Under the pieces are notes generated by a model, which did not search any database, was not told the origin of the DNA, and saw nothing but the letters and a program-made list of their open reading frames with translations. Below are positions 1-8,530 of a DNA stretch of 13,318 nt, in pieces (the stretch's first letter is position 1; the number at the start of each line of letters is the position of its first letter). A program made the position numbers and the translations under genes. This stretch comes from Leptospiraceae bacterium (GTDB lineage Bacteria > Spirochaetota > Leptospiria > Leptospirales > Leptospiraceae). The stretch covers positions 1 through 13,318 of the forward strand of contig JAGPCV010000036.1 of assembly GCA_018057905.1 (NCBI GenBank). The letters run 5' to 3'.

Positions 1-50
1 AATTTGACTATTTAAAGCCCATTATCAAAAATCCAAAAGGACAGGAGATT

Positions 51-3000
51 TTGACAGATGCAATGCAGACTCGCTCCGAGTTTATCAAAGCGCAAGACTC
101 TTTTATTTCCGCAATCGAAAGGGATGATAAAGACGAAGCTTACAATATATTAATCAAAGACTTCCGTCCTATTCAATTAAAATACATCGGTCACTTAGAC
201 AAGCTATTAGAATTTCAAGCCACCTTTGCTCAAAATGAAGCAAACCTGTCTGTAGGAAATATAATCGAAGTTACCAATAGAATAACATGGATTTCTATTC
301 TATTTGGAATACTCGTAGCTTATCTTGGTTATACAATCGTAACCTCCATTCTCAATTCCCTCCACAACTTGGAAAAAAATGTCAATGAAATCGGGAAAGA
401 AGGTAACTTTGACACAAGAATAGAAACCGATTCTACAGATGAAATCGGAATATTTGCCTTAAGCTTTAAAGAGATGATGAAAGGTATGAAGGACATGCTC
501 GCAGATGCCAACATGCTTTCCCGCGCTGCCGTTGAAGGAAGACTTGCAACTAGAGCAGACGCATCTAAATACAAAGGTGATATGCGTAAGATTGTAGAAG
601 GGGTTAATCAGACATTAGACGCTGTCATTGGTCCTCTTAACGTTGCTGCTGATTATGTTGATAAAATCTCTCGTGGGGCTATTCCTGCAAAAATTTCCGA
701 CACTTACAACGGAGACTTTAACACAATCAAGAACAACTTGAACAATGCTATTGATAATGTAAACGCACTTGTGGCTGATGCCAGTATGCTTGCGAAAGCA
801 GCAGTAGAAGGTAAACTTGCAACTCGCGCTGATGCTACTAAACACCAAGGTGACTATCGTAAGATTGTAGAAGGGGTTAACCAGACATTAGACTCTGTAA
901 TCAATCCTCTCAATGTTGCGGCTGATTATGTTGATAAAATCTCCCGTGGTGCTATCCCTGCTAAGATTTCCGATACATACAACGGGGACTTCAATGTCAT
1001 CAAGAACAATTTAAACAATGCTATTGATAATGTGAACGCTCTTGTGGCTGACGCCGGTATGCTTGCGAAAGCGGCTATTGAAGGGAAACTCGCAACCCGT
1101 GCCGATGCAACCAAGCACCAAGGCGACTATCGTAAGATTGTAGAAGGGGTTAACCAGACGTTAGACTCTGTGATTGGTCCTCTCAATGTTGCTGCTGATT
1201 ATGTTGATAAAATCTCACGCGGTGCTATTCCCGCTAAGATTTCCGACACTTACAACGGTGACTTCAATGTTATCAAGAACAACTTAAACAACGCGATTGA
1301 TAATGTGAACGCTCTTGTGGCTGATGCTGGTATGCTTGCGAAAGCGGCTATTGAAGGGAAATTGGCAACCCGTGCGGATGCAACCAAACACCAGGGCGAC
1401 TATCGTAAGATCGTGGAAGGGGTTAATCAGACGTTAGACTCTGTAATCAATCCTCTTAACGTTGCCGCTGATTACGTTGATAAAATTTCCCGTGGAGCAA
1501 TCCCTGCAAAGATTACTGACACTTACAACGGGGACTTTAACACAATCAAGAACAATTTAAACAACGCGATTGATAATGTAAACGCACTTGTGGCTGATGC
1601 TGGAATGCTCGCGAAAGCGGCTATTGAAGGTAAGCTCGCAACCCGTGCGGATGCAACCAAACACCAGGGTGACTATCGTAAGATCGTGGAAGGGGTTAAT
1701 CAGACGTTAGACTCTGTTATCAATCCTCTTAACGTAGCTGCTGATTATGTAGATAAAATCTCACGCGGTGCTATTCCATTGAAGATTACTGATACATACA
1801 ACGGTGACTTCAATGTTCTAAAGAATAACTTGAACAACGCAATTGATAATGTAAACGCACTTGTGGCTGACGCTGGAATGCTTGCGAAAGCGGCTATTGA
1901 AGGTAAGCTTGCAACACGTGCTGATGCAACCAAACACCAGGGAGACTATCGTAAGATCGTGGAAGGGGTTAATCAGACGTTAGACTCTGTGATTGGTCCT
2001 CTCAATGTTGCGGCAGATTATGTAGATAAAATCTCTCGCGGGGCAATTCCAAATCAAATTACTGATACTTACAATGGGGATTTCAATACTCTCAAGAACA
2101 ATCTCAATCGTTGTATTGAAAACGTAAATGCACTTGTGGCTGACGCCGGTATGCTTGCGAAAGCGGCTATTGACGGTAAGCTTGCAACACGTGCCGATGC
2201 AACTAAACACCAAGGAGATTTCCGTAAGATTGTAGATGGGGTTAACAACACATTAGACGCTGTGATTCTTCCAGTTCAGGAAGCTTCTTCTGTATTACTT
2301 GAACTCTCTAAAGGTAATTTAAAAGCTAGAATGCTCGGTGATTACAAAGGAGATCATGCTACTATTAAGACAGCTCTTAATACAAGCCTTGTAACTTTAA
2401 ATGACTATGTGGGGGAAATCTCGCGTATCCTATCTTCCATGTCTGCCGGAGACTTATCAGTTGATGTAACAAAAGACTTCATGGGAGACTTTGCTGAAAT
2501 TAAAAAAGCGTTAACTCTCATCGTTGATTCCTTTAATGAACTCATTGGAGAAATCATCAACGCTTCGGATCAAATCCTCATTAGCTCAAGACAAGTCGCT
2601 GACTCAAGTCAATCTCTCTCGCAAGGATCGAACGAGCAAGCTAGTAGTGTTGAAGAGATTACCGCTACGTTAGCCGTCATAGAGCTCAAGGCTAAGGATA
2701 ATGCGAAGAATGCGAAGGACGCAAGTGATCAGGCTATGAACGTGAAAGATCAGGCTGTTTCTAGTAACAACGAAATGAAAGGTATGCTCAAAGCAATGGA
2801 AGAAATCAGCGAAACATCTGAAAATATTGCTAAGATCATCAAAGAAATTGATGCTATCGCATTCCAGACAAACATACTCGCGTTAAACGCCGCTGTAGAA
2901 GCTGCCCGTGCGGGACAACATGGTAAAGGATTTAACGTGGTCGCAGAAGAGGTTCGTAACCTTGCTTCTCGTAGTGCGAACGCAGCGAAAGAAACTACCA

Positions 3001-3368
3001 AGATGATTGAAGGATCTATCAAAACAGTTCGCTCTGGTATGGACATTGCGGGAAGAACTGCAAACGAATTGAATAAGATGACAGCTGGTGTTGTAGATGT
3101 TACAGATCTCGTGAAAGACATTGCGAGTGCATCGATTGAGCAGTCTTCGTCGGTAGTAGAGACTACAACCGGTATCAATCAGATTTCACAGGTGACAATG
3201 AGTGCAGCAGCTACAGCAGAAGAAAGCTCAGCAGCTAGTCTTGAGTTGTCTAGCCAAGCAGAAGCGTTCCAGGCAATGGTGAAGAGATTTCAAATTAAGA
3301 AATCAAAAGATGACAGAAAGAGAGAGCAACAGTCATCCTCGAATAAGAAAAAAATTGATTTGAAGTAA
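51..3368 (+). CDS. Methyl-accepting chemotaxis protein with a poly-HAMP array (about 14 HAMP-like units) and a C-terminal MCP signalling domain. The 5' end is uncertain because the frame is open back to the window start.
   Basis: Translation shows one hydrophobic TM segment ([24 protein letters not shown]), then a canonical HAMP ([17 protein letters not shown]), then 91-aa tandem repeats that each split into two HAMP-like halves (…[31 protein letters not shown]… and …[30 protein letters not shown]…). The highly conserved MCP signalling core follows ([40 protein letters not shown]). Candidate starts are TTG at 51 or ATG at 63, with an AGGAG at 43-47. No stop codon lies upstream in frame within the window. 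Confidence 0.9.
501..2270 (+). repeat. Intragenic tandem repeat: six full and one partial, diverged copies of a 273-bp (91-aa) unit inside the MCP gene
   Basis: The GCT-GA(C/T)-GC(N) (Ala-Asp-Ala) unit boundary recurs at 501, 774, 1047, 1320, 1593, 1866 and 2139, an exact 273-nt period. Units 2-6 are nearly identical at protein level. Unit 1 is slightly diverged, and unit 7 diverges after about 40 codons. Confidence 0.9.
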
Positions 3369-3372
3369 GGAG
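3367..3372 (+). promoter_or_regulatory. Shine-Dalgarno (AAGGAG) for cheW, 8 nt upstream of the ATG and overlapping the mcp stop codon
   Basis: AAGGAG is read directly at 3367-3372, the ATG lies at 3381, and the mcp TAA lies at 3366-3368. Confidence 0.6.
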
Positions 3373-3380
3373 TAAAGTGT

Positions 3381-3869
3381 ATGGCAACGACATTTGAAGA
3401 AGAACAATTAGAAGAATCTGAAGATACTATGGAGGATCTCTATATCATCTTTTTCATCGATGGAAGAGAGTATGGTATAGAGATTCGTTACTTGATTGAA
3501 ATCATTGCGTTTCAACCTGTGACTTTTGTTCCAAACTTACCAGAATATGTTAAGGGAGTAATTAACCTTCGTGGGAAGATTATTCCCGTCATTGATGTGC
3601 GGCTAAGATTCGGTTTACCCAAGATAGACTATACCGAATTCACCTGCATATTGATTATGAATTTTAACAATCTAAGTGCAGGGCTTATCGTCGATGGAGT
3701 CAAAGAAGTTTTAAAAATTCCAAAAGATTGTATTGAGCCCTCACCAGGATTTGAAGAAGCAAATATGGAGCGATTCGTCGATTCCATTGGAAAGTCAGGC
3801 GATACATTGAAAATATTGATCGACCTGAATAAGTTTATTCATGAGAAAGATGTAAAAGGAATTGCTTAG
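3381..3869 (+). CDS. cheW: Chemotaxis coupling protein CheW
   Basis: 162 aa, the typical single CheW-domain size. It has CheW-like motifs (FFIDGREYGIEIRYLIEII…PNLPEYVKGVINLRGKIIPVIDVRLRFGL). It sits between the mcp and cheA. Confidence 0.9.
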   Translation: MATTFEEEQLEESEDTMEDLYIIFFIDGREYGIEIRYLIEIIAFQPVTFVPNLPEYVKGVINLRGKIIPVIDVRLRFGLPKIDYTEFTCILIMNFNNLSAGLIVDGVKEVLKIPKDCIEPSPGFEEANMERFVDSIGKSGDTLKILIDLNKFIHEKDVKGIA

Positions 3870-3877
3870 GTTCTACA

Positions 3878-5758
3878 ATGCTTGGAGAAAATGAACTTTC
3901 AGACCTTGTGCTTGATTCACAAGAGATATTGGATAAAGCAGAAGCAATTCTGATCCAATTGGAAAAAAGTTTAACTGAGTCAACGGTTGACGCAGATAAG
4001 GTAAATTCATTATTCCGCTATTTCCATACACTCAAAGGAAATGCGGGATTTTTCAATTTCAATGTGATAGTAAACCTATCGCATTCAGCAGAATCATTAT
4101 TAGAGATTGTAAGAAATGACAATTCTCTTCTTGATCAAAAAATGATTCAGCTCTTCATGGAAGCAAGAGATACTCTATACGAAATATTCACAAATTTAAA
4201 CGAAAACAAAACAGATACAATGTATAAAGAGAAGGCGGATACTTTAATTCCCCGACTCTTCTATATAAAAGAAAATCTAAAAGCAGAGTCTTCAGAGCCA
4301 AAGAAAGAAGAGCCTAGGTTTGGAATCTTCAAAAAGAAAATTGTGCTTTCTGATACTCCAATAACAGAAGAGGATAATAAGGAGTTGCCAGTTTCGAATG
4401 AACCTGCCCCTACTCCGGAAAATTCAGAATCTGATAAGTTAGATAAACATATTACAGAGAGAGCCACGCAAGAAAATCCTGTTTTAGAAAAAAAGATTCA
4501 AAATACTATAGAGGCAAATAACGGTAATTCGAATGGACAAGCTACAGTAAAAAGAGACATTCGAATCGAAACAGAGAAATTAGATTACCTACTAGACATG
4601 ATTGGTGAGCTAGTGATAGCTGAATCTCTTGTAACTCAAAATCCAGACATCAAAGAACTAGATCTTCCGAACTTTTCTATTCAATCTTCCTATTTACGTA
4701 AAGTAGTCCGTAATCTACAAGAAGTATCCTTGCAGCTAAGGATGATTACCCTCGAAGGTTTGTTTAATAAAATGGAACGACTTGTTCGAGACTTAGCACA
4801 AAAAACAGGAAAGAAAGTGGGTCTTCAAGTTACGGGAAAAGAAACAGAAATTGATAAGAATGCCCTTGAAATATTAACAGATCCACTAGTTCATATTATC
4901 CGCAACTGTATCGATCATGGATTGGAAACAGGCAAAGAGAGATTAGCTAAAGGCAAAGTAGAATCCGGTCATATCAAGATTGAAGCAATGCATTCAGGAA
5001 ATGAAGTATGGATTATTATTTCTGATGATGGTGCAGGCTTAGATAGAGATAGAATTTTGAAAAAAGCAATGGCTCGCGGATTAATCAAAGAAGGAGAAGA
5101 CGAAAATCTAAAAGACGAAAGAATTTGGGATTTTATTTTTCAACCTGGATTCTCGACTAGTGATAGAGTAACTGATATTTCAGGACGCGGAGTAGGACTT
5201 GATATAGTTCGCAGAAATATAGCAAAGATCAACGGCGATGTTGAAATCAAGACGAAAAAAGACCAGGGAGCATCGTTCATTCTAAAGCTACCTCTTACAA
5301 TTGCTATCATTGAAGGTATGGTGGTAATCTACAACGGGGTATTCTATATTATCCCCACAATAGACGTAAAAGAAACACTGAATTTGGCAGAATCGAAAAT
5401 CGACTATATCGATCAGGACAAAAAAGTAATTCGCTTCCGAGAGCAGCTAATACCCGTTGTCTCCGTAGAGAGATTACTCAATCACGATTCAAGTGACAAG
5501 GACTCTAACTACGAAAATTCTTTATATGTAATTATTGTGGAGTATAAGAATAATTCGCTAGCCCTAGTATTTGATGGAATTGTAGGAAATCAATCGGTTG
5601 TAATTAAACCAATTCCAGATTATTTAAAAGGAACAAAGGGCTTTTCAGGTTGCACAATCCTGGGAAGTGGGAATATTGGAATGATTCTAGACATTAGATT
5701 CTTTATTAATAATTACTACAAGGAAAACAAAGAATCCGAAGCAGCACATGGACAATAA
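3878..5758 (+). CDS. cheA: Chemotaxis histidine kinase CheA with P1/HPt, P3, P4/HATPase and P5/CheW-like domains and no recognisable P2
   Basis: HPt motif with the phospho-His (FRYFHTLKGNAGFF). Dimerisation region (IRIETEKLDYLLDMIGELVIAESLV). GHKL N-box (HIIRNCIDHGLE), DDGAGLD, and a G-box (GRGVGLDIV). C-terminal CheW-like domain (IIEGMVVIYNGVFYIIPTIDV…). A roughly 90-aa low-complexity acidic/Pro-rich linker between P1 and P3 replaces a recognisable P2. Confidence 0.9.
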   Translation: MLGENELSDLVLDSQEILDKAEAILIQLEKSLTESTVDADKVNSLFRYFHTLKGNAGFFNFNVIVNLSHSAESLLEIVRNDNSLLDQKMIQLFMEARDTLYEIFTNLNENKTDTMYKEKADTLIPRLFYIKENLKAESSEPKKEEPRFGIFKKKIVLSDTPITEEDNKELPVSNEPAPTPENSESDKLDKHITERATQENPVLEKKIQNTIEANNGNSNGQATVKRDIRIETEKLDYLLDMIGELVIAESLVTQNPDIKELDLPNFSIQSSYLRKVVRNLQEVSLQLRMITLEGLFNKMERLVRDLAQKTGKKVGLQVTGKETEIDKNALEILTDPLVHIIRNCIDHGLETGKERLAKGKVESGHIKIEAMHSGNEVWIIISDDGAGLDRDRILKKAMARGLIKEGEDENLKDERIWDFIFQPGFSTSDRVTDISGRGVGLDIVRRNIAKINGDVEIKTKKDQGASFILKLPLTIAIIEGMVVIYNGVFYIIPTIDVKETLNLAESKIDYIDQDKKVIRFREQLIPVVSVERLLNHDSSDKDSNYENSLYVIIVEYKNNSLALVFDGIVGNQSVVIKPIPDYLKGTKGFSGCTILGSGNIGMILDIRFFINNYYKENKESEAAHGQ

Positions 5759-6827
5759 CAAAAAAATTAAAGTATTTATTGTGGACGACCAAAGAGTCGT
5801 TCGAAATGTTATTCGAAAAATGATAACGACCGATCCGCGCATTGAAGTGGTAGGAGAAGCTTCAAATCCTTTTGAAGCAAGCGAGCTGATTCCAGAAAAA
5901 GAGCCCGATGTTTTAACTCTAGATGTAGAAATGCCTCGCATGGATGGAGTGGAATTTTTGCGAAAGCTTATGCCTCAGTATCCAATCCCTGTGATCATGG
6001 TCAGTAGCACAACTGAGGAAGGTTCAGAGAAAGCAATTTTAGCAATGCAATATGGTGCAGTTGACTTTGTCACAAAGCCAGATGGTGGAGCGATTACTCT
6101 CGAATCAACGCAAGCAGAATTAATTCAAAAGATTAAAACAGCATCTACGATCAATATTGATAGATGGCTCAAGCAATTAAAATATAAATCCATGCCACTC
6201 ATGAATAATCCTATGGCAGGTAAAAATGGAAAGAGTAAATACAATCTTATTGCTATTGGTGCATCAACTGGTGGAGTGACTGCAATACGTCAGGTGCTAT
6301 CTACAGTGCCTAGAGATTTTCCATGCATTGTGATTACTCAGCATATGCCGCCAGGATTTACGGCTACTTTTTCAAAGGGAGTTTCTAAAGATTTCGGACT
6401 TGATGTGCGAGAAGCAAAAGATCAAGATATAATTCAGACAGGAAGAATTTACGTTGCACCGGGAGACTTTCATTTAGTGGTAAATAAAAGAAATGGAATT
6501 AATCACACGGTTGGCTTAAATCGTGCCGAGAAAGTTAACGGACATAGACCATCTGTGGATGTTCTATTTCATTCCATTGTTGATAATAAACTTGCCAGTG
6601 AGACAATTGGCGTTATTTTGACAGGCATGGGAATGGACGGAGCAAAAGGGTTACTAGCAATGCGAGAAGCTGGATCGAGAACCATTGGCGAAAGTGAACA
6701 GTCGGCACTCATATACGGAATGCCGAAAGTTGCTTACGAAATCGGCGGTGTGGAAGAGCAACTTCCCCTTTCTCAAATGGTGAATAAGATAAAAAATTAT
6801 TTAAACTACTCGGGCCAATATGTCTGA
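5748..6827 (+). CDS. cheB: Protein-glutamate methylesterase CheB (N-terminal receiver plus C-terminal methylesterase)
   Basis: Receiver motifs (KVFIVDDQRVVRNVI…DVLTLDVEMPRMDG…VIMVSS…VDFVTKP). Methylesterase motifs (IAIGASTGGVTAIRQVL…CIVITQHMPPGFTATFSK…GMGMDGAKG). The start overlaps the cheA stop by 11 nt. Confidence 0.9.
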   Translation: MDNNKKIKVFIVDDQRVVRNVIRKMITTDPRIEVVGEASNPFEASELIPEKEPDVLTLDVEMPRMDGVEFLRKLMPQYPIPVIMVSSTTEEGSEKAILAMQYGAVDFVTKPDGGAITLESTQAELIQKIKTASTINIDRWLKQLKYKSMPLMNNPMAGKNGKSKYNLIAIGASTGGVTAIRQVLSTVPRDFPCIVITQHMPPGFTATFSKGVSKDFGLDVREAKDQDIIQTGRIYVAPGDFHLVVNKRNGINHTVGLNRAEKVNGHRPSVDVLFHSIVDNKLASETIGVILTGMGMDGAKGLLAMREAGSRTIGESEQSALIYGMPKVAYEIGGVEEQLPLSQMVNKIKNYLNYSGQYV

Positions 6828-8067
6828 TAAAATATTACTCTATACTCAAAACAAAGAAATAACAGAGCAGGTGAAAACCTACGTTGATGATCTTACTTAC
6901 GCTTTCAACGTAGCGGATAATATGGATAATCTCACAAGTTATCTTAAATCAGATGACACATGGCTACTCGTTTATGATTTTCTTGACACGAGTAGCGAAA
7001 ATCAAAAAAATCTTGGAAATATTCTTTCCGAATATCCATTTCAATTGGTTATTCTATTAATCAATCGAGAGGAAGGAGACAAGTTTCTACAAATGATGGA
7101 AAACTATCATGTGTATGATATTATCTCCTACCCAATTTATAAATTCAATTTTCATTTTGCGATAACAAAGGCTATCACCTACGGAAAGGTGATGTCCAAG
7201 ATTTCTGATTTTAAATCAAACGAGAAACAAGTTTTCGAATCCATGATTAAAGTATTTGATTGGAGAAAAGAACTTGATACTAGAAAAGTCGAATCTCTTG
7301 CAAATGAATTAATACACCAAATCAATATTAGCTTCTTCCATGGAAGTGGTCTCGGATCACTTATTAGCACACTGAGTATTTTATTTTCAAAAGCTAAATT
7401 AGATGAAGAGAAAAAAGTTTACTTAGTTCATGAAAAAATTTATCACCTATTAAAAGACAACTACGACGAAATTCTAAAACTAAGTGATAGTTTAACTAAA
7501 ACACAAGCCATATTAGCGGAAAAGGATTTTTATATAGGGAAATTAACCCTGAAAGATTTCTATGCTGCATTAACCGAAATGGTAAAAGGTATGAAACCAG
7601 TTGCTGGAATTAAAAATCAGAAGATAGTTATGGGTGATTTTCCAAGAGACCTAGCCGGAAGATCAATTACTGCCAGCCCAGAAAATTTGAAGCTAGTCTT
7701 TGATGAATTATTAACAAATGCAATTAAATACTCGGAAGATGGAGATACAATCTATATTCTATTTTCACATGATAAAACGGATTTTGGAATCAGAATCCTG
7801 AATCCCGCCTACAAGAATTCAGACGGAACAGTGGGGATAACGGAGAGTAATGCGCATAAAATCTTTGAACCATTTTTTCGATTGACTAATGTTGTAGATG
7901 ATAGATTCATGCAGGAAACATTTCGATTTGGTCTGGGTTTGACAGTTGTAAATAAAATTATTGATTTACACAAAGGGAGTATTTCGTTTTATACAACAGA
8001 CAATAATATGAGACGAGAAAACAATATGAAAGATGTATGCGTTTGGGTTCGATTTCCAATTTTATAA
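6820..8067 (+). CDS. Atypical signalling protein: degenerate (pseudo-)receiver N-domain, a roughly 150-aa middle region of unclear type, and a C-terminal histidine-kinase-like (GHKL) ATPase domain
   Basis: The N-terminal 120 aa have receiver-like beta/alpha periodicity (KILLYTQN…WLLVYDFLDTSS…QLVILLINRE…YDIISYP). They lack the acidic DD pair and the conserved Lys. The C-terminus has an N-box (LVFDELLTNAIKYS), a G1-like box (HDKTDFGI), an F-box (FEPFFR) and a G2 box (RFGLGLTVV). No canonical H-box was seen; the nearest is ELIHQINISF. It overlaps the cheB stop by 8 nt (ATGTCTGA), so it is translationally coupled. Confidence 0.6.
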   Translation: MSDKILLYTQNKEITEQVKTYVDDLTYAFNVADNMDNLTSYLKSDDTWLLVYDFLDTSSENQKNLGNILSEYPFQLVILLINREEGDKFLQMMENYHVYDIISYPIYKFNFHFAITKAITYGKVMSKISDFKSNEKQVFESMIKVFDWRKELDTRKVESLANELIHQINISFFHGSGLGSLISTLSILFSKAKLDEEKKVYLVHEKIYHLLKDNYDEILKLSDSLTKTQAILAEKDFYIGKLTLKDFYAALTEMVKGMKPVAGIKNQKIVMGDFPRDLAGRSITASPENLKLVFDELLTNAIKYSEDGDTIYILFSHDKTDFGIRILNPAYKNSDGTVGITESNAHKIFEPFFRLTNVVDDRFMQETFRFGLGLTVVNKIIDLHKGSISFYTTDNNMRRENNMKDVCVWVRFPIL

Positions 8068-8075
8068 AAAAGGCA

Positions 8076-8081
8076 AGGAAG
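8076..8081 (+). promoter_or_regulatory. Shine-Dalgarno-like AGGAAG, 4 nt upstream of the cheY ATG
   Basis: Read directly at 8076-8081. The ATG lies at 8086. Confidence 0.45.
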
Positions 8082-8085
8082 TATT

Positions 8086-8445
8086 ATGAAAAAAGTTCTT
8101 ATAGTTGATGATTCTCCAATGGTTTTGAATATAATTGAGACTGCCCTAAGCCTCGAAGATTATGATGTAGTTAGAGCGTCTAATGCCGATGAGGCGCTAA
8201 AAAAAATTGAAGAAGGAAAATTCGATTTTGGAATATTCGACGTAAATATGCCTGGCAAGACTGGAATCGAACTTGTCCCACTAGTTTTAAATCATCCCAA
8301 CGGCAAATCAATGAAGATTGTAATTTTGACCACCGAGTCTAGTGCTGAGATTCGTAAAAAAGGAGAAGACGCAGGAGCATCTGCCTGGATGGTAAAACCA
8401 TTTAAAAATGCTGAAATGATTGACCTGCTAAAACAATTAGAGTAG
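8086..8445 (+). CDS. cheY: Single-domain response regulator of CheY type
   Basis: 119 aa. All receiver signature residues are present: DD (KVLIVDDSP), phospho-Asp (GIFDVNMPG), Thr (VILTTES) and Lys (WMVKPF). It is the last gene of the che cluster. Confidence 0.85.
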   Translation: MKKVLIVDDSPMVLNIIETALSLEDYDVVRASNADEALKKIEEGKFDFGIFDVNMPGKTGIELVPLVLNHPNGKSMKIVILTTESSAEIRKKGEDAGASAWMVKPFKNAEMIDLLKQLE

Positions 8446-8530
8446 TCACTCAAAGTAAAAAATAAAACGAATATTTTTCTACTTGCTTGTTCTATTATTC
8501 AAATTAAGATTTGCAGAATAAACTATTAGC

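Follow-up and report, generated by a model that had tools for sequence, protein, structure and literature searches.

Organization of the receptor gene

The stretch of DNA described here (the window) comprises positions 1 to 13,318 of the forward strand of contig JAGPCV010000036.1 from a Leptospiraceae bacterium (GenBank assembly GCA_018057905.1). Its first gene encodes a methyl-accepting chemotaxis protein (MCP) in which 16 consecutive HAMP domains (residues 114–848) precede the signalling domain. The receptor is an uncharacterised, newly found member of a known, chemoreceptor-type poly-HAMP family, and its array is long, though not exceptional. The gene is a single long open reading frame on the + strand with its stop codon at 3368. 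In the numbering used here window base 3 corresponds to residue 1, and 1121 codons are present. Because the frame is open back to base 3, with no upstream stop, the gene is truncated at the 5′ end by the edge of the contig and window, with approximately 97 codons, including the first transmembrane helix (TM1), absent. A database protein (P0008) that is 100% identical to the window MCP is titled 'MAG: methyl-accepting chemotaxis protein, partial [Leptospiraceae bacterium]', where MAG stands for metagenome-assembled genome.

The encoded protein starts with the 3′ part of a 4HB_MCP sensor (3–281), a periplasmic four-helix bundle assigned from the open frame, the 'partial' record and an alignment to orthologues. 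It is followed by transmembrane helix 2 (TM2; 282–353), which was located with a Kyte-Doolittle scan and matches TM2 of the full-length orthologues, and by a membrane-proximal canonical HAMP domain with a DExG motif (HAMP0; 354–500; PF00672). The regular poly-HAMP array, consisting of 13 units in the order A1 B1 ... A6 B6 A7, occupies 501–2270 and is delineated by Tandem Repeats Finder, the table of units, Pfam HAMP_2, hidden Markov models (HMMs) of the two unit types, AlphaFold2 (AF2) models and Foldseek. Next come a degenerate B-type HAMP (B7′; residues 757–803; 2271–2411), identified by HAMP_2, the B-HMM and the AF2 helices, and a terminal HAMP (residues 804–848; 2412–2546), identified by HAMP_2, the B-HMM, an alignment to PDB entry 3zx6 and AF2. 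The methyl-accepting MCPsignal kinase-control hairpin, together with a short basic C-terminal tail and the stop codon, completes the gene (2547–3368; PF00015, alignment to Tsr, and Foldseek).

Six related contigs (L001–L006) were retrieved by way of the neighbouring CheW. The orthologue in L002 and L004 is 1477 residues long, and residue 1 of the window protein aligns to its residue 98. This orthologue contains a 4HB_MCP_1 domain (PF12729) between hydrophobic segments at residues 9–33 and 184–218, and TM2 is the sole hydrophobic segment of the window protein in a 19-residue Kyte-Doolittle scan. The receptor is therefore a conventional two-transmembrane MCP with a periplasmic four-helix-bundle sensor. 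An earlier note on this DNA had left a choice between a gene that continues upstream and a single-transmembrane, cytoplasm-facing receptor. The open frame, the 'partial' record, and TM1 and the 4HB_MCP domain of the full-length orthologues bear out the former and lead to rejection of the latter.

The repeat array

Tandem Repeats Finder detects one array, at 532–2267, with a period of 273 nucleotides (nt), 6.4 copies, 86% matches, 0% indels and a score of 2145, which is far above chance expectation. The exact 273-nt period and the approximately 6.5 units given in the earlier note are thus confirmed, as is the span of about 590 residues at 501–2270: this segment encodes residues 167–756, exactly 590 residues, composed of seven 44-residue A units and six 47-residue B units. 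The number of regular HAMP-like units, put at roughly 14 in that note, is accordingly corrected to 13. When the translation is cut at every 91 codons, six full and near-identical units are obtained, while the seventh diverges after approximately 34 residues. The di-HAMP module of 91 residues, or 273 nt, corresponds to 13 heptads and comprises a non-canonical A unit and a canonical-like B unit. Since the connector of B is one residue shorter than that of A, successive GD[YF] motifs are spaced alternately by 45 and 46 residues. A single motif had been proposed to be shared by both halves of the module; it holds exactly in A2–A7, but in B1–B5 the connector has to be shortened by one residue. The motifs E-G-K, Q-G-D-Y, R-G-A and N-G-D-F are present in every unit. 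Across 88 homologues from several phyla the di-HAMP consensus is strikingly conserved, with at least 90% conservation of the helix-cap glycines and the GD[YF] columns.

The Pfam model HAMP_2 (PF18947) matches the array in eight stretches with 709.1 bits (E=5.1e-219; gathering cut-off 24.3 bits), so that the absence of a profile match, named beforehand as a refuting outcome, did not occur. A single B unit scanned alone against HAMP_2 scores 66 bits. The model has 67 columns, of which columns 23–67 correspond to a whole B unit and columns 1–22 to the helical segment AS2 of the preceding A unit. For assignment of all units, A and B HMMs were built in three rebuilding rounds on 127 proteins; HMMs made from the window units alone missed the two degenerate terminal HAMPs, as well as the divergent middle HAMPs of L001 and L002. 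With the rebuilt HMMs the regular units score 77–86 bits each, and the order of units in the window is ABABABABABABABB (15 units). Together with HAMP0, the 13 regular and two degenerate units make up the 16 HAMPs. The hydrophobic heptad positions a and d(e) run unbroken through both the B-to-A and the A-to-B junctions, and hydrophobicity along the array is most strongly periodic at 3.5 residues. The heptad register, which the earlier note had proposed to check, is hence continuous across both junction types.

Array ends and signalling domain

At the membrane-proximal end, PF00672 matches HAMP0 at residues 114–160 (E=3.7e-17, 62.8 bits; 32.5 bits when scanned alone). HAMP0 bears the DExG motif (TDEIG) at the junction of connector and AS2, a mark of membrane-coupled canonical HAMPs (PMC3570549). 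The proposed architecture, in which a two-type alternating di-HAMP array follows the membrane-proximal canonical HAMP of an MCP, is upheld by the matches to PF00672, HAMP_2 and MCPsignal and by the A and B HMMs.

At the other end, B7′ matches HAMP_2 columns 23–66 with 38 bits and scores 52.5 bits with the B-HMM versus 18.1 bits with the A-HMM. The terminal HAMP matches columns 26–66 with 30.8 bits, and its scores with the B- and A-HMMs are 48.3 and 17.4 bits, respectively. It aligns to the Af1503 HAMP within the HAMP-Tsr fusion 3zx6, and its AS2 and the initial helix of the signalling domain form one uninterrupted helix (256–395 of the fragment modelled with AF2). Instead of the three to four degenerate HAMPs that had been suggested to follow the array, the HMMs and AF2 reveal only these two.

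MCPsignal (PF00015) matches residues 908–1065 (E=5.7e-44, 150 bits). Residues 811–1102 align to residues 230–521 of Escherichia coli Tsr (E=2.6e-44), including the tip motif; because this alignment has no gap (292 residues in both proteins), the signalling domain is of Tsr length. Methylation-type EQ/EE motifs, as read from the same alignment, are kept. In the classification of Alexander and Zhulin, the hairpin presumably represents the 36-heptad class.

Predicted structure

Two AF2 monomer models were obtained from the 88-sequence alignment. The model of residues 108–439, with a predicted local distance difference test (pLDDT) score of 90.7, contains eight helices of approximately 31 residues with connectors of 13–14 residues between them. 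The model of residues 575–1121 (pLDDT 83.8) shows the same helix pattern and, after it, the long hairpin of the MCP. Each of the ∼31-residue helices combines AS2 of a given HAMP with AS1 of the following one, with the heptad register unbroken. Over the first 40 residues of the 108–439 model the pLDDT is only 63–76. In the alignment used for this model MAFFT had placed HAMP0 against the B units of the homologues, a misplacement that probably explains the low values.

A Foldseek search against the PDB with the model of residues 108–439 returns three poly-HAMP structures of Aer2 as top matches (4i3m, 4i44 and 3lnr), with probability 1.0 and TM(target) scores of 0.56–0.58 over approximately 155 columns. 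Next are single Af1503 HAMP structures (TM 0.83, root-mean-square deviation 1.2 Å). With the hairpin-containing model of residues 575–1121, MCP matches dominate and Aer2 appears in 28th place; the Af1503-HAMP/Tsr fusion 3zx6 is found with E=1e-13 and a TM(target) of 0.81. The structural comparison with Aer2 that the earlier note had called for thus yielded helical fragments (pLDDT 84–91) with the Aer2 crystal structures first, and a disordered or non-helical prediction did not result. A sequence search identified the poly-HAMP crystal structure of AskA (9trk, E=5.8e-10 over 210 residues) and, weakly, Aer2 (3vol, E=0.04). The AskA entries 9trk and 9trj were not returned by Foldseek (PDB copy to April 2026) and were found by sequence only.

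Comparison with known poly-HAMP proteins

Poly-HAMP arrays built from di-HAMPs, with alternating canonical and non-canonical HAMPs, were reportedly defined by Dunin-Horkawicz and Lupas in 2010. Winski et al. (2024) modelled the families G1/F6, in which middle units share >90% identity (PMC10731501). According to Coles et al. (2026), HAMP groups A/B lie upstream of methyl-accepting domains, 723 chemoreceptors in NR90 have at least five consecutive HAMPs, and arrays 'can comprise dozens'; an alternating-rotation model for poly-HAMP arrays is described as well (PMC13446029; see also PMC10731501 and PMC3570549). A literature search under 'PF18947' or 'HAMP_2' retrieved only papers on hepcidin (Hamp2).

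The homology search with the window protein is saturated, at least 7986 of 8000 candidates being significant. The best 120 hits have a median of 20 A/B units and a maximum of 34, with 15 or more units in 118 of them; hits include Methylomonas, Limnobacter, Bryobacteraceae and Methanolobus. One di-HAMP unit gives 7990 matches in a 50%-identity representative library, 2061 of them at E≤1e-30, and the best 150 of these matches carry 3–16 di-HAMP stretches each. Among 147 newly returned representatives, 29 reach 15 units or more, and the longest array counts 29. By these sequence counts, the window array with its 15 A/B units belongs to the long tail, roughly the top 1–2% of representatives, and lies well inside the known range. 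The description of the array as 'exceptionally long' can therefore not be maintained, as homologues reach 29–34 units and the class has been published (PMC13446029, PMC10731501).

The receptor resembles groups A/B of Coles et al. (PMC13446029) in having alternating di-HAMP modules directly upstream of a methyl-accepting domain, conserved glycines at the HAMP-HAMP junctions, an aromatic residue (F/Y) after GD, and first and last HAMPs that differ from the uniform middle ones. Unlike the wording 'soluble' in the abstract of that study, the window receptor is membrane-anchored, and its array is preceded by a DExG HAMP and a periplasmic 4HB sensor. Since many of the HAMP_2 homologues retrieved here also carry 4HB or Cache sensors according to Pfam, solubility is not treated as defining. 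Two further differences are that the window array, as read with our HMMs, ends in two B-like units instead of continuing the alternation, and that its units are near-saturated at synonymous sites, so that amplification was not a recent event by the standards of these strains.

Similarities to other HAMP-containing systems are more limited. Aer2 from Pseudomonas aeruginosa (3LNR, 4I3M, 4I44 and 3VOL) also has concatenated HAMPs, with AS2 running on as the next AS1, and an MCP signalling output. In contrast to the window receptor, it is soluble and has 3+2 dissimilar HAMPs that are interrupted by a haem-PAS domain, without 91-residue repeats. Membership of the Aer2 type was rejected: the NF041847 score of 517.5 bits is below the cut-off of 1200, there is no PAS match, and a transmembrane helix is present. 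Kinase-type arrays, such as those of Myxococcus AskA (9TRK/9TRJ) and the fungal group III kinases Nik1/Os-1/Bos1/TcsC, share the alternating di-HAMP modules of approximately 90 residues and the inter-HAMP spacing. However, these arrays are soluble, consist of HAMP groups C/D of independent origin, and have an output formed by GAF, histidine kinase and receiver domains and not by an MCP hairpin. With E. coli Tsr and Tar the receptor has in common a periplasmic four-helix bundle, TM2, a DExG HAMP and a hairpin of Tsr length. Unlike these proteins it contains 15 added HAMPs (residues 167–848) between the input HAMP and the signalling domain, and it has no NWETF-type C-terminal pentapeptide.

Age of the units and variation between alleles

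The units of the window array are 78–89% identical to each other in DNA (11–22% of bases differ) and 84–98% in protein. Between units, the number of synonymous substitutions per site (dS) is 0.63–1.27, and its ratio with the non-synonymous number (dN/dS) is 0.02–0.09. In the arrays of related loci the mean between-unit dS is 0.9–1.06. Comparison of the window with other strains yields dS values of 0.64 (MCP C-terminus) and 0.03–0.16 (cheW). Every unit is under strong purifying selection. Because between-unit dS is near saturation, the copies are old relative to these strains and have been kept alike by purifying selection. Very recent amplification or ongoing homogenisation is rejected by the between-unit dS of ∼0.6–1.3. 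Near-identical units can be old (dS ∼1), which qualifies the usual inference of 'recent amplification'.

The comparison of repeat number between orthologues, another proposal of the earlier note, gives 15 A/B units for the window, 15 for L003, at least 18 for L005 and 21 for the database protein P0002. L003 is an independent assembly with the same array of seven A and six B units, in which the positional partner is the best match for units 2–6 (86–89%). Within L003 6341–9988 the array and the C-terminus are the same as in the window, whereas the sensor, the transmembrane helices and HAMP0 are unrelated; in L003, BLASTN finds no match to window 3–500. L003 is therefore an apparent case of a natural sensor swap at the HAMP0/A1 boundary.

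Compared with its nearest relative, L005, the window shows 98–100% identity from approximately 3100 to 8700, 78–92% inside the MCP gene and 84–96% inside a gene for a protein similar to the major vault protein (MVP). The pattern is mosaic, with the regions 2100–3100 and 8700–11300 involved, and at this mosaic locus the dS of the MCP C-terminus is 0.64 versus 0.03 for cheW. This suggests allelic replacement by recombination at the MCP and MVP-like genes, and a chimeric MAG contig is less likely.

Directly upstream of the orthologous receptor, L001 (1–5246) and L002 (1984–5245) contain further HAMP_2 MCPs and a second cheW. Two of these upstream poly-HAMP MCPs are called in L001 and one in the L002 part, and one has PAS domains. 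At the corresponding position L003 has unrelated genes, for PfkB and a cytidylyltransferase. Tandem MCP paralogues could serve as donors for array mosaics between alleles.

Three independent metagenome contigs (window 1, L005 1, L006 3) begin inside or just before the MCP array. Evidently, short-read assemblies tend to break at poly-HAMP repeats, and long arrays are therefore probably undercounted in databases.

Proposed signal transmission through the array

The array very probably forms the cytoplasmic stalk of a two-transmembrane, Tsr-like chemoreceptor of poly-HAMP group A/B (G1/F6), which relays the signal to the kinase-control tip. A mechanism can be outlined from the published gearbox and dynamic-bundle models, from Aer2-Tar chimeras and from the AskA structures. 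By analogy, the receptor would be a homodimer with 16 stacked HAMPs, each a parallel four-helix bundle. A ligand bound by the four-helix-bundle sensor in the periplasm would displace TM2, and HAMP0, with its DExG motif, would turn this displacement into a helix rotation or a change in packing. The sense of rotation would be reversed at each subsequent unit, such that the signal passes down a stiff zig-zag rod. At its far end the kinase-control tip would regulate the CheW and CheA encoded immediately downstream, with adaptation by CheB and by a CheR encoded elsewhere. The ∼31-residue helices that each span two HAMPs in the models correspond to an estimated ∼2.3 nm per HAMP, and 15 extra HAMPs would therefore add approximately 35 nm to a Tsr-like receptor. 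As a by-product of the array, or possibly as its purpose, the kinase layer would be held at ∼55–60 nm from the membrane, and not at ∼23 nm.

Several observations weigh against this model of a relaying stalk. AS1 and the connector of the A unit are matched by no Pfam model, although such partial coverage is the expected behaviour of the divergent, non-canonical poly-HAMP type. The array closes with A-B-B, two B-like units in succession, and so departs from strict alternation; the same ending is seen with our HMMs in orthologues and in some distant homologues, e.g. P0001 and P0022. For the HAMP-only fragment Foldseek gives modest E-values (4e-3 to 2e-2), as would be anticipated when simple helical repeats are compared. 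In addition, the AF2 models are monomeric; the geometry of their helices and connectors, like the Foldseek matches, is compatible with the predicted four-helix-bundle packing and a zig-zag of x-da/da-x states. The contig on which the copies were counted is a short-read MAG assembly that breaks off within the MCP gene, and no cheR gene is present within the window. Finally, according to Coles et al. (PMC13446029), AF2 models of chemoreceptor arrays lack the clear alternative conformations obtained for kinase arrays, so that active rotation in such arrays is hypothetical.

This last point bears on a first alternative, in which the array would serve chiefly as a stiff spacer or ruler that sets the distance between membrane and kinase baseplate and segregates the array of this pathway from those of shorter receptors; transmission would then be trivial, like that of a rod, without HAMP-by-HAMP switching. 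It is consistent with the AF2 surveys, which predict chemoreceptor-type arrays to be stable and without distinct alternative states (PMC13446029), and with cryo-tomograms in which extra HAMP or PAS domains give taller arrays (35–40 versus 24 nm; PMC7184735). The variation in unit number among related alleles (15, at least 18 and 21) and the presence of a separate CheW and CheA at the locus would fit as well. However, since a periplasmic sensor has to act on a C-terminal kinase-control tip, any signal must cross all 16 HAMPs. Moreover, the array is not a plain coiled coil, and the strict conservation of its two alternating unit types (dN/dS 0.02–0.09) suggests more than a rod. Poly-HAMP units also propagate opposite signals in Aer2-Tar chimeras (PMC3570549). 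A pure spacer thus seems unlikely, if conceivable.

A second possibility is that the length of the array is itself selected, because it provides a deep, physically separate layer for the CheW, CheA, CheB, kinase and response regulator of the operon; this proposal is quite doubtful. A Leptospiraceae cell is approximately 100–150 nm wide. If length were selected, a CheA/CheW layer at ∼55–60 nm would be positioned near the cell axis, and alleles with 15, at least 18 and 21 units and with swapped sensors could tune or diversify the signalling layer by recombination of the repeats. In that case the recombining repeats would be kept apart by their synonymous divergence.

It is distinctly improbable that the array itself is a sensor, whether of a small molecule or another cytoplasmic cue or of a physical one like temperature or osmolarity, as proposed for the poly-HAMP region of fungal group III histidine kinases. 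The very high conservation of the di-HAMP sequence across phyla and the different periplasmic sensor on the same array in L003 would agree with such a function. On the other hand, chemoreceptor-type (A/B) and kinase-type (C/D) arrays have separate origins, the complete periplasmic 4HB sensor and the DExG input HAMP argue for a conventional transmembrane input, and a packed four-helix bundle offers no evident ligand pocket. An assembly artefact in copy number or unit order (repeat collapse, expansion or a chimeric join), to which the starts of the window contig, L005 and L006 in or near the MCP gene and the change in identity to L005 at cheW (78–92% within the MCP, 98–100% from cheW onward) might point, is very improbable, given that units differing at 11–22% of bases leave reads and k-mers mostly unique, that no indels or frame breaks occur over 1.7 kb, and that the independent assembly L003 has the same seven A and six B units, with units 2–6 best matched on the diagonal (86–89%).

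The receptor provides a clean natural example of a membrane-anchored poly-HAMP protein, in which a 4HB sensor and a DExG HAMP feed 15 further HAMPs, and it is a good substrate for asking whether a transmembrane signal passes through many alternating HAMPs. The alleles of related strains, with varied unit numbers and varied sensors, constitute natural variants for the effects of array length on signalling. On its own the receptor is of little import, the family already having a Pfam model, related crystal structures and a dedicated 2026 study.

Neighbouring genes

Downstream of the MCP gene, and likewise on the + strand, Pfam identifies cheW (3381–3869; CheW), cheA (3878–5758; Hpt, H-kinase_dim, HATPase_c and CheW) and cheB (5748–6827; Response_reg and CheB_methylest). 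The gene order MCP-cheW-cheA-cheB is the same in all six related loci. Their products, the kinase complex and a demethylating enzyme of adaptation, are presumably controlled by the receptor or act to modify it. An Rfam scan of the window gave no match.

Overlapping the stop of cheB by 8 nt with its start, the next gene (6820–8067, +) encodes a 415-residue protein in which Pfam finds only HATPase_c, without HisKA; matches to NCBIfam histidine kinases are weak. It is followed by a gene for a single-domain response regulator (8086–8445, +; Pfam and NCBIfam). The chemosensory cluster may thus feed a second two-component step, instead of, or besides, the flagellar motor.

The MVP-like gene mentioned above (8542–11034, +) encodes an 830-residue homologue of the eukaryotic major vault protein, as identified by Pfam and PDB matches; an NCBIfam scan of this protein gave no match. 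Pfam assigns Vault_3 (residues 470–510), MVP_shoulder (residues 514–617) and Band_7, and residues 456–594 match the MVP chains of 7pkz and 4hl8 in the PDB (E=1.3e-11). No domain is assigned to the N-terminal 455 residues. In all six related loci the MVP-like gene directly follows the response-regulator gene.

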